Shown here: positions 2,056 to 6,892 of the stretch, one piece after another | Layout: every line of letters begins with the position of its first letter | Position numbering within the stretch: the stretch's first letter is position 1 | Source: Escherichia coli | Lineage (GTDB): Bacteria; Pseudomonadota; Gammaproteobacteria; Enterobacterales; Enterobacteriaceae | Reading direction: 5' to 3' (one strand) | Length of the DNA stretch: 64,000 bases | Assembly: GCF_003790525.1 (NCBI RefSeq) | Contig: NZ_CP033635.1 | Position numbers and translations under genes: made by a program | Notes under the pieces: model-generated | Database searches by the model: none | What the model was told of the DNA's origin: nothing | Seen by the model: the letters and a program-made list of their open reading frames with translations, nothing else

Positions 2056-4946
<2,891 letters not shown>

Positions 4947-5029
4947 CGGATTTTATCCTGTTATCAGTAGGGTAGATGTAGTTGTTATCAGTCGACGTGA
5001 CGGAAAAATGCCGATGCTGAAACGGAATT

Positions 5030-5045
5030 AGGAAACCGGTTTCAC
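5030..5045. promoter_or_regulatory. Perfect palindrome GAAACCGGTTTC; candidate AscG (LacI/GalR-family) operator
   Basis: 12-bp perfect palindrome in the ascF-ascG divergent intergenic region. Confidence 0.5.
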
Positions 5046-5105
5046 AAAATCATGAATAGTTGTCACTAAATAAGCAAGAGAGTTAATTGTTCATTTTTTA
5101 TATTT

Positions 5106-5119
5106 GTGAAACCGGTCAC
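5106..5119. promoter_or_regulatory. Second, imperfect AscG-operator-like site GTGAAACCGGTCAC
   Basis: Near-repeat of the 5032 palindrome about 75 bp downstream in the same intergenic region. Confidence 0.4.
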
Positions 5120-5202
5120 CTGAATATTTTTCCCGCCGATTGCGCAAGGACAATCGGCAAACGGTGCAGTACACTGCGTTGATTGCGTGTAAAGGGATGA
5201 AA

Positions 5203-6216
5203 ATGATGACGACGATGCTGGAAGTGGCGAAGCGCGCCGGGGTTTCAAAAGCGACCGTTTCCCGCGTGCTTTCAGGTAATGGCTACGTCAGCCAGGAGAC
5301 TAAAGATCGCGTGTTTCAGGCGGTAGAAGAGAGCGGTTACCGCCCAAATTTGCTGGCCCGCAATCTGTCGGCGAAAAGTACCCAGACGCTGGGGCTGGTA
5401 GTGACTAACACGCTTTACCACGGCATTTATTTTAGTGAACTACTGTTTCATGCCGCGCGAATGGCGGAAGAGAAAGGGCGGCAGTTGCTATTGGCAGATG
5501 GTAAACACAGCGCCGAAGAAGAGCGCCAGGCGATTCAGTATCTGCTGGATCTGCGCTGCGACGCGATCATGATTTATCCGCGCTTTTTAAGCGTGGATGA
5601 AATTGATGACATCATTGACGCGCACAGTCAGCCGATAATGGTGCTTAATCGCCGCCTGCGCAAAAATAGCAGCCATAGCGTCTGGTGCGATCATAAACAG
5701 ACCAGCTTTAACGCCGTGGCAGAGTTGATAAACGCCGGGCATCAGGAGATTGCTTTCCTTACCGGCTCGATGGATTCCCCCACCAGCATTGAACGTCTTG
5801 CCGGGTATAAAGACGCGCTGTCGCAGCATGGTATTGCGCTCAATGAAAAACTTATCGCTAACGGTAAATGGACGCCTGCCAGCGGGGCCGAAGGGGTAGA
5901 AACGTTGCTCGAACGTGGGGCTAAATTTAGCGTGTTAGTTGCCAGTAACGACGATATGGCGATAGGTGCGATGAAAGCGTTGCACGAGCGCGGCGTAGCG
6001 GTGCCAGAGCAGGTGTCAGTTATCGGATTCGATGATATCGCTATTGCCCCCTACACCGTTCCGGCGCTCTCCAGCGTAAAAATTCCGGTAACTGAGATGA
6101 TTCAGGAAATTATTGGACGGCTGATTTTTATGCTCGATGGTGGGGATTTCTCACCGCCGAAAACCTTCAGCGGAAAACTGATCCGCCGCGGCTCCCTCAT
6201 TGCTCTTTCGCAATAA
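5203..6216 (+). CDS. ascG: LacI-family transcriptional repressor AscG
   Basis: HTH N-terminus (MLEVAKRAGVSKATVSRVL) and periplasmic-binding-like fold. Start chosen at ATG 5203 to match the recalled 337-aa length; ATG 5197 is an alternative. Confidence 0.85.
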   Translation: MMTTMLEVAKRAGVSKATVSRVLSGNGYVSQETKDRVFQAVEESGYRPNLLARNLSAKSTQTLGLVVTNTLYHGIYFSELLFHAARMAEEKGRQLLLADGKHSAEEERQAIQYLLDLRCDAIMIYPRFLSVDEIDDIIDAHSQPIMVLNRRLRKNSSHSVWCDHKQTSFNAVAELINAGHQEIAFLTGSMDSPTSIERLAGYKDALSQHGIALNEKLIANGKWTPASGAEGVETLLERGAKFSVLVASNDDMAIGAMKALHERGVAVPEQVSVIGFDDIAIAPYTVPALSSVKIPVTEMIQEIIGRLIFMLDGGDFSPPKTFSGKLIRRGSLIALSQ

Positions 6217-6268: not shown

Positions 6269-6364
6269 CATTACAGAATTTAATTTCTTTAAATAACAGT
6301 AAATTAAAAACTGGCATGATTTGTGAATGTATCGGCGCATTAACTGTCATTGCTGGAGAATTTG

Positions 6365-6892
6365 ATGAACCGTTTCATCATTGCTGACGCGAGTAAATGT
6401 ATTGGTTGCTGTACCTGTGAAGTGGCGTGCGTGGTTTCTCATCAGGAGAATCAGGACTGTGCATCGCTGACCCCGGAAACTTTTTTACCGCGAATCCATG
6501 TCATTAAAGGTGTGAACATTTCTACGGCAACAGTCTGCCGTCAGTGTGAAGATGCACCGTGTGCTAACGTCTGCCCGAATGGTGCTATCAGCCGTGATAA
6601 AGGGTTTGTTCATGTGATGCAGGAACGTTGCATTGGTTGCAAAACCTGCGTTGTGGCTTGCCCGTATGGCGCGATGGAAGTGGTGGTACGTCCGGTGATT
6701 CGCAACAGCGGCGCGGGGCTGAATGTACGGGCTGACAAAGCCGAAGCCAATAAATGCGACCTCTGTAACCATCGTGAAGACGGCCCGGCGTGTATGGCGG
6801 CTTGCCCGACCCATGCGCTGATTTGTGTCGATCGTAATAAACTTGAACAACTGAGCGCAGAAAAACGTCGCCGTACGGCGCTGATGTTCTAA
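6365..6892 (+). CDS. hydN: Electron-transport ferredoxin-like protein HydN (4Fe-4S clusters)
   Basis: 175 aa from ATG 6365 ([15 protein letters not shown]...), multiple CxxCxxCxxxCP motifs, GGAG Shine-Dalgarno; the track ORF starts at an upstream TTG. Confidence 0.85.

Follow-up and report, generated by a model that had tools for sequence, protein, structure and literature searches.

The region between ascF and the divergent gene ascG carries two elements that resemble the operator of AscG, and the two are not equivalent. The element closer to ascF (site 1) is conserved throughout the orthologous regions and, by phylogenetic footprinting, probably lies on the ascF transcription start. The element closer to ascG (site 2) is primarily a conserved site for the activator CRP. 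We consider it probable that ascFB is expressed from a weak promoter activated by CRP, that AscG acts at the operator on the start site and that AscG and CRP compete with one another at site 2. AscG sites at ascFB are already known, and the first-pass annotation of this DNA named the feature correctly.

The asc locus

Coordinates are those of the window, the 64,000-nucleotide stretch of Escherichia coli DNA that was analysed. The locus controls expression of ascFB, a cryptic beta-glucoside operon transcribed divergently from ascG, and the genes were identified as shown in Table 1. The ascF-ascG intergenic region is 259 bp long, contains both AscG sites and is 100% identical to that of E. coli SMS-3-5; RefSeq also has ascF and ascG on its flanks. 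AscG matched the AscG structures 3dbi and 3brq of the PDB with E = 1.6e-215 and 4.5e-189, respectively, and GalS and GalR were the nearest NCBIfam families to it. Three of the 259 intergenic bases differ from K-12. One of these is the outermost base of site 1 (position 5031, G vs A in K-12) and none is in site 2.

The control region was found in 4,698 of 5,426 complete E. coli genomes. In 118 E. coli metagenome contigs, the predicted ascF -35 and -10 hexamers and the 12-bp core of site 1 were nearly invariant, and what variation there was fell within the promoter spacer or at positions 5084 and 5031.

Table 1. Elements of the ascF-ascG control region and neighbouring genes, in window coordinates.
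Feature	Position	Strand	Description
ascB	2056-3492	-	6-phospho-beta-glucosidase; NF007356, 1091 bits vs cutoff 623; match from residue 5 of the ORF
ascF	3489-4946	-	PTS cellobiose/arbutin/salicin IIBC transporter; NCBIfam NF007311, 1027.9 bits vs cutoff 722; first gene of the regulated operon
Extra TGAAAC half-site (putative)	5018-5023	+	in the leader of ascF; reads GTTTCA on the ascF-sense strand
AscG operator site 1	5031-5044	.	14-mer GGAAACCGGTTTCA (ascF-sense TGAAACCGGTTTCC); core 5032-5043
Left arm of exact 14-nt inverted repeat	5035-5048	.	ACCGGTTTCACAAA
ascFB -10 (predicted)	5049-5054	-	CATGAT; conserved block ATGATTtTGTGgAACCGGTTTCCTA in 80 regions; start at about 5042
ascFB -35 (predicted)	5072-5077	-	TTGCTT; 17 bp upstream of the -10; TTG (in cTTG) at a fixed distance from the operator
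Right arm of exact 14-nt inverted repeat	5103-5116	.	TTTGTGAAACCGGT
CRP box	5105-5120	.	TGTGAAACCGGTCACC, centre 5112.5; 9/10 core bases of TGTGA-N6-TCACA
AscG site 2	5107-5120	.	TGAAACCGGTCACC, centre 5113.5; overlaps the CRP box with a 1-bp offset
ascG -35 (predicted)	5147-5152	+	AGGACA; GACAAt core conserved; from an alignment with the CRP box and ascG as anchors
ascG -10 (predicted)	5170-5175	+	TACACT; within strikingly conserved block cgGTGcAGTACACTGC (5163-5177); 17-bp spacer to the -35
ascG	5206-6216	+	LacI/GalR-family repressor; 336 aa counted from the second ATG (K-12 annotation)

Two related sites

The first-pass annotation had claimed a perfect 12-bp palindrome and an imperfect second copy 75 bp away. 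The palindrome, GAAACCGGTTTC, was read directly at 5032-5043, and the second copy is GAAACCGGTCAC at 5108-5119, which differs from the first at 2 of 12 positions. The distance was about right; it is 76 bp both from start to start and from centre to centre (5037.5 for site 1 and 5113.5 for site 2), with a gap of 64 bp between the two. The dyad of site 1 is centred on the CpG step at 5037/5038, and ACCGGT forms the centre of both sites. Relative to the palindromic consensus, site 2 matches at 11 of 14 positions.

A single perfect palindrome of 12 bp is not unusual in this DNA, where 19 were found vs 15.6 expected. The pairing of the two sites is not due to chance. Sites 1 and 2 have in common an exact 14-nt inverted repeat, which takes in flanking bases and is present nowhere else in the window. 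Of 491 sliding windows of 259 bp laid over the 64 kb, only one held an inverted repeat this long, and that one is the region described here. When the intergenic region was shuffled, none of 5000 shuffles gave so long an inverted repeat.

To score both sites independently of the E. coli sequence, we used a weight matrix for AscG built from 12 distinct operator sequences, which came from non-Escherichia species only. Over the whole window, site 1 ranked first (27.8 bits) and site 2 ranked second (13.5 bits). GTTTCA was seen at the place of the putative half-site in the ascF leader in many other genera, and the column consensus at that place does not score as conserved. In the K-12 prpR-prpB region, the full 14-bp AscG consensus was unmatched at up to 3 mismatches, and only repeats of the TGAAAC half-site were found.

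Binding of AscG at ascFB

The annotation had proposed a motif comparison with published AscG operators. In that comparison, site 1 on the ascF-sense strand matched TGAAACCGGTTTCT, the AscG binding sequence taken from PascF (PMC8667592 Table S3), at 13 of 14 positions. On a synthetic promoter, with TGAAACCGGTTTCT at +1, AscG was 'a strong repressor', and with the same sequence at -61 it had 'almost no regulatory role' (PMC8667592). Support for the claim that both elements are AscG operator sites comes from PMC3505978, which credits ascFB with two AscG binding sites and cites Ishida et al. 2009. TGAAACCGGTTTCT is exactly the K-12 allele of site 1 as read on the ascF strand, and the window has C for T at its last base (5031).

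The study of Ishida, Kori and Ishihama (2009, J Bacteriol 191:6136) is said to give the AscG consensus as TGAAACC-GGTTTCA (TGAAACCGGTTTCA). Repression was reportedly attributed to interference with CRP, at a box that overlaps AscG site 2, and with the binding of RNA polymerase. The abstract reportedly describes both sites as lying upstream of the promoter of ascFB; taken literally, this would put the ascF start further downstream than we infer here. Published work from 2009 covers the AscG sites of ascFB as well as its dependence on CRP, and both are entered in regulatory databases. The operators described here are at the same locus and are the same two sites as the K-12 ascFB operators of Ishida et al. 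2009, in the SMS-3-5 allele, and nothing essential differs.

Site 1 and the ascFB promoter

A scan of positions 4900-5260 for sigma-70 promoters and terminators yielded none at threshold, and phylogenetic footprinting was used instead to place the promoters. A scan of the window for the sigma-54 consensus did no better than chance. For the footprinting, a scan of species-representative genomes for AscG gave 80 loci, with 79 of which the window was compared. The loci represent Escherichia, Citrobacter, Enterobacter, Klebsiella, Raoultella, Kluyvera, Leclercia and others, through Aeromonas and Sodalis. In all 80, ascF is divergent from ascG, and site 1 was kept as TGRAACCGGTTYCA in all 80 regions.

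On the ascF strand, the conserved block ATgATTtTGTGgAACCGGTTTCCTA adjoins site 1 on its upstream side, with a conserved TTG 17 bp further up. The ascFB hexamers predicted from this alignment (Table 1) are weak, with 3/6 and 4/6 matches. With these elements, the ascF start would fall at about 5042, which corresponds to about 2,839,428 in K-12. Counted from there, site 1 would be centred near +5.5 and the CRP box near -70.5. Whereas the annotation had set site 1 between the divergent promoters, the footprint places it on the probable ascF transcription start instead. In regions of the Enterobacter/Lelliottia type whose intergenic spacers are the shortest (212-215 bp), the operator and the ascF ATG are only 34-36 bp apart, too close for a promoter to fit downstream of the operator.

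At the predicted ascG promoter, the conservation of cgGTGcAGTACACTGC reaches beyond the -10 hexamer. The element GCAGTACACTGC does not recur in the window. Relative to ascG, the CRP box would be centred at about -69.5, and one CRP site may serve both divergent promoters. We also considered whether the inverted repeat might function in RNA, and rejected this; the predicted ascF start is inside site 1 and the predicted ascG start is downstream of both arms, so that no transcript would contain the two arms of the repeat. An Rfam scan of 4850-5300 found no RNA family.

Site 2 as a CRP box

The description of site 2 as an imperfect copy holds insofar as it is AscG-like, but it overlooked a near-consensus CRP box at the same place, TGTGAAACCGGTCACC. 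This is the sole match in the window to TGTGA-N6-TCACA with at most one mismatch, although the count by itself is not significant, with 1.9 expected by chance. The right half of site 2 reads GGTCACC, vs GGTTTCA for AscG, and it deviates from the latter precisely where the CRP consensus is satisfied. Genomic SELEX recovered ascF among the known cAMP-CRP targets (PMC3105977).

A CRP-like box with no more than 2 mismatches was present upstream of the operator in 78 of the 80 regions. From centre to centre, the CRP box and the operator were 75 bp apart in 43 regions and 74 bp apart in a further 32; one region had 73 bp and four had 65 bp. An A-rich tract separates the box from the -35 in the alignment of orthologous regions. 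In the four 65-bp cases the box is exactly one helical turn closer, at about -60.5 relative to the predicted start. Class I CRP sites are centred near -61.5, -71.5, -82.5 or -92.5, and in the window the box would be at -70.5 relative to the start predicted from the conserved -10. Positions -70.5 and -60.5 would both be on the helix face used by class I sites.

The second AscG site was much less widespread than the CRP box on which it lies. AscG-like second sites scoring 8 bits or more were found in only seven of the 80 regions (four of the Escherichia type and three from Kluyvera), always on the CRP box, and the next-best AscG score in the remaining 73 was 3.5 bits or less. The three Kluyvera regions have TGAAACCG in the CRP box. 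A CRP box of the Citrobacter type, TGTGATTACGATCACC, has no AscG half-site. Upstream of ascF, then, site 1 is conserved in every region, and site 2 is not conserved as an AscG site (7/80).

A model for repression of ascFB

In the arrangement that we favour, a weak sigma-70 ascFB promoter would depend on cAMP-CRP bound at 5105-5120, in a class I position. An AscG dimer on 5031-5044, which would extend from about -2 to +12, would block RNA polymerase sterically. The spacer of the Escherichia CRP box holds an AscG half-site, TGAAACC, and a second, weaker AscG dimer could take the DNA of CRP there, with the result that activation is prevented (anti-activation by competition). That AscG acts at site 2 by competition is our inference, in agreement with what Ishida et al. 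reportedly state in their 2009 abstract. The spacing of 76 bp would then represent the distance from a class I CRP site to an operator on the start site, and not the length of a loop.

Like class I CRP promoters with CRP near -70, the asc region has a CRP box about seven helical turns upstream of the start, with the A-rich tract between it and the -35, although here the value of -70.5 depends on the predicted start; malT is a class I CRP-dependent promoter with CRP at -70.5. CytR is also a LacI-family repressor that interferes with CRP, as proposed for AscG. CytR binds beside CRP and contacts it, whereas at asc the site for the repressor and the CRP box overlap each other, which would lead to competition. 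PtxS, a LacI-family regulator from Pseudomonas that responds to 2-ketogluconate, has the identical 14-bp palindrome TGAAACCGGTTTCA as its operator at about +5 to +18 of its target promoters, where it occludes RNA polymerase. PtxS differs from AscG as a regulator and in effector and organism, and its partner is the activator PtxR rather than CRP.

Looping between the two sites

The annotation had considered the spacing compatible with DNA looping. As a statement on spacing this stands, because 76 bp is within the 75.5-77.5 bp range of stable LacI loops, but looping itself was not supported. The proposal would be that AscG dimers at sites 1 and 2 touch and loop out the 54-bp core promoter, and that 76 bp was selected for this. 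We regard it as unlikely. In its favour are the two AscG-like sites with centres 76 bp apart, when LacI forms a stable, relaxed loop at 75.5 and 77.5 bp, and the kinship of AscG with GalS and GalR, its closest paralogue families, of which GalR loops without a tail of the LacI type. Several LacI/GalR chimeras displayed dimer-dimer looping, and PtxS, with the same operator sequence, has been proposed to loop with PtxR. The asc region also resembles the LacI O1/O2/O3 and GalR OE/OI systems in having two dyad operators, each with a CpG at its centre and separated by tens of bp, at a CRP-dependent promoter.

The evidence from the protein points the other way. A chimera of LacI's DNA-binding domain with the AscG core (LLhA/Q55A) changed less than 2-fold across four diagnostic spacings, unlike GalR- and TreR-based chimeras, for which spacing dependence was seen; the authors contrast the LLhA/Q55A result with the two AscG sites at ascFB (PMC3505978). 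AscG residues 3-329 align to residues 5-327 of the 360 of LacI, and AscG ends at 336, without the C-terminal tetramerisation segment. It is possible that AscG tetramerises and loops through another surface, as GalR does.

The comparison of regions bears on the spacing directly. A spacing of 74-75 bp was found in 75 of the 80 regions, no more than six of which have an AscG-like second site, and it is thus kept in at least 69 regions where the upstream element is a plain CRP box. Since the spacing is conserved without a second AscG site, it can be explained with no appeal to looping. The general design is one operator on the start site, and in 73 of the 80 regions no other AscG-like site scored 8 bits or more. 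Unlike the LacI and GalR looping systems, then, asc has a repressor without the LacI-type tail, no looping signal from the chimera and an upstream site that is not conserved as a site for its repressor.

AscG or CRP at site 2

A simpler proposal is that site 2 is only a CRP site, that its likeness to an AscG site is incidental and that AscG acts solely through site 1. This would account for the 73 orthologous regions in which a CRP box is present with no AscG-like sequence there, and for the departure of GGTCACC from the AscG consensus exactly where it fits that of CRP. The near lack of effect of AscG at -61 of a CRP-independent promoter is also in its favour. The sequence of site 2 speaks against it, ranking second among AscG-like sites of the 64 kb under a matrix that contains no Escherichia sequences and sharing with site 1 an exact 14 nt, including flanking bases that neither consensus requires. 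The presence of TGAAACCG in the same box in three Kluyvera, and the two AscG sites given for ascFB in PMC3505978, also argue against a site for CRP alone. On balance we think this proposal quite improbable, and prefer AscG-CRP competition at site 2.

Other regulators and inversion of the promoter

It is very unlikely that the paralogues GalR and GalS bind the sites, whether instead of AscG or besides it. They belong to the NCBIfam families closest to AscG, and a scan of K-12 with a GalR weight matrix flags both sites, with a score of 12.66 at 2839356 (ascG-ascF) and AAGAAACCGGTTTCAC at 2839425-2839440. Against this, the part of the same study's ChIP-chip table of 15 GalR-bound regions that runs down to cytR has no peak near 2,839,000, and the GalR operators that are bound have a G/T-rich centre (e.g. 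GTGGTAACGTTTACA), not AACCGGTT.

In one strain, E. coli TUM1226, the 54 bp of 5049-5102 are exactly reverse-complemented, with breakpoints inside the 14-nt arms. The exact 14-nt inverted repeats flank this 54-bp segment, which contains the predicted -35 and -10 of ascFB. After inversion the predicted ascFB promoter would face ascG, with site 2 over its start. If such an event were recurrent and reversible, it would constitute a recombinase-independent switch that silences ascFB and raises expression of the repressor. The inverted arrangement was found in 1 of 4,699 E. coli records (TUM1226 only), and the inverted junction was present in none of the metagenome contigs, vs at least 120 with the normal junction. 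No dedicated recombinase is adjacent to the segment, whose flanking genes are ascF and ascG. An invertible switch similar to fimS was rejected, since the two orientations are not recurrent in populations and there is no adjacent recombinase. That the inverted repeats serve as recombination substrates for a promoter flip is therefore only a slight prospect, and TUM1226 is better accounted for by one rare recombination event between the operator repeats, or by an assembly error, than by a switch.

Implications for the asc operon

The asc region cautions against reading the spacing between two operators as evidence for a loop. The comparison of regions points to an operator on the start site with a CRP box upstream as the ancestral asc design in both Enterobacterales and Aeromonas. 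In E. coli, the second AscG site would be a lineage-specific overlay on the CRP box, and it may add to the tight ('cryptic') silencing of the operon.

Inversion of the segment between the AscG sites

The 54-bp segment between the AscG operator and the AscG-like site on the CRP box is exactly inverted in E. coli TUM1226 (NZ_CP135719.1), and the breakpoints lie within the 14-nt inverted-repeat arms. The inverted segment carries both the predicted -35 and the predicted -10 hexamer of the ascFB promoter. TUM1226 was alone in this arrangement among 4,699 E. coli records, and the inverted junction was found in none of the metagenome contigs, while the normal junction was present in at least 120. The positions of this segment and of the other features described here are collected in the table.

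Features of the asc region and related loci (window positions unless a locus is named)
Feature	Position	Sequence
Inverted segment in TUM1226	5049-5102	
TUM1226 ascF-ascG region	233-491 (locus L083)	
Direct repeat	4959-4968	TGTTATCAGT
Direct repeat	4983-4992	TGTTATCAGT
Additional half-site	5018-5023	TGAAAC
Conserved block upstream of ascG	5163-5177, with 5147-5152	cgGTGcAGTACACTGC
Fourth-ranked AscG-matrix match	6363-6380	TGATGAACCGTTTCATCA
K-12 prpR-prpB repeats	about 116-196 (locus L002)	TGAAAC (four)

Spacing of the CRP box and operator

The CRP box lies 65 bp from the operator, as opposed to the usual 74-75 bp, in four loci, those of Escherichia sp. ESNIH1 (L025), Pseudescherichia vulneris (L030), Enterobacter sp. 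ENT03 (L031) and Enterobacteriaceae UBA7338 (L032). The predicted CRP position is -60.5 in these four, against -70.5 with the usual spacing. The box is one helical turn nearer the operator, as expected if CRP is held to the same face of the helix.

Additional elements in the ascF leader and near ascG

An additional half-site is present in the ascF leader, 13 bp past the operator half-site, and many genera have GTTTCA at the equivalent position. AscG has one other reported target, the K-12 prpR-prpB region, where TGAAAC is present as four direct repeats and not as a full palindrome. Two identical 10-bp direct repeats, reading ACTGATAACA in the sense of ascF, also lie 24 bp apart in the ascF 5' leader; the second extends into the ribosome-binding region.

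On the other side of the intergenic region, the block 5' of ascG is near-invariant from Escherichia through Aeromonas and includes the near-palindrome GCAGT-AC-ACTGC. It probably contains the ascG -10 (TACACT). Because the conservation is wider than one hexamer, a second factor may also bind here. The fourth-ranked match to the AscG matrix in the window (7.9 bits), the centre of which is 1 bp shorter than that of the AscG operator, falls at the beginning of the ORF after ascG, annotated hydN in K-12, and is probably coding sequence matched by chance.

Distribution of the asc locus

Aeromonas spp. (L070-L080) have the same ascF-ascG arrangement as E. coli, and most of them carry a perfectly palindromic 14-bp operator, TGGAACCGGTTCCA. 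Their AscF proteins are 82-87% identical to that of E. coli, which seems high for so remote a lineage and hints that the locus was transferred horizontally. The intergenic region of Sodalis sp. dw_96 is 459 bp, about 200 bp longer than in other loci, and its spacer holds several tandem copies of a unit resembling the ascG 5' end (GATATGACGACAAT..CTTGAAGTGGCGAAAGAGAC). Two asc loci (L003 and L015) were found in one bin, the MAG 'Citrobacter sp. HRGM_Genome_0066'; one is Citrobacter-type and the other, on a 6.8-kb contig, is E. coli-type (AscG 99% identity), and this contig looks like E. coli contamination.

Within E. coli, the asc control region (query, window 5015-5135) was missing from 728 of 5,426 complete genomes (13%), and the asc locus is therefore a member of the accessory genome of this species.
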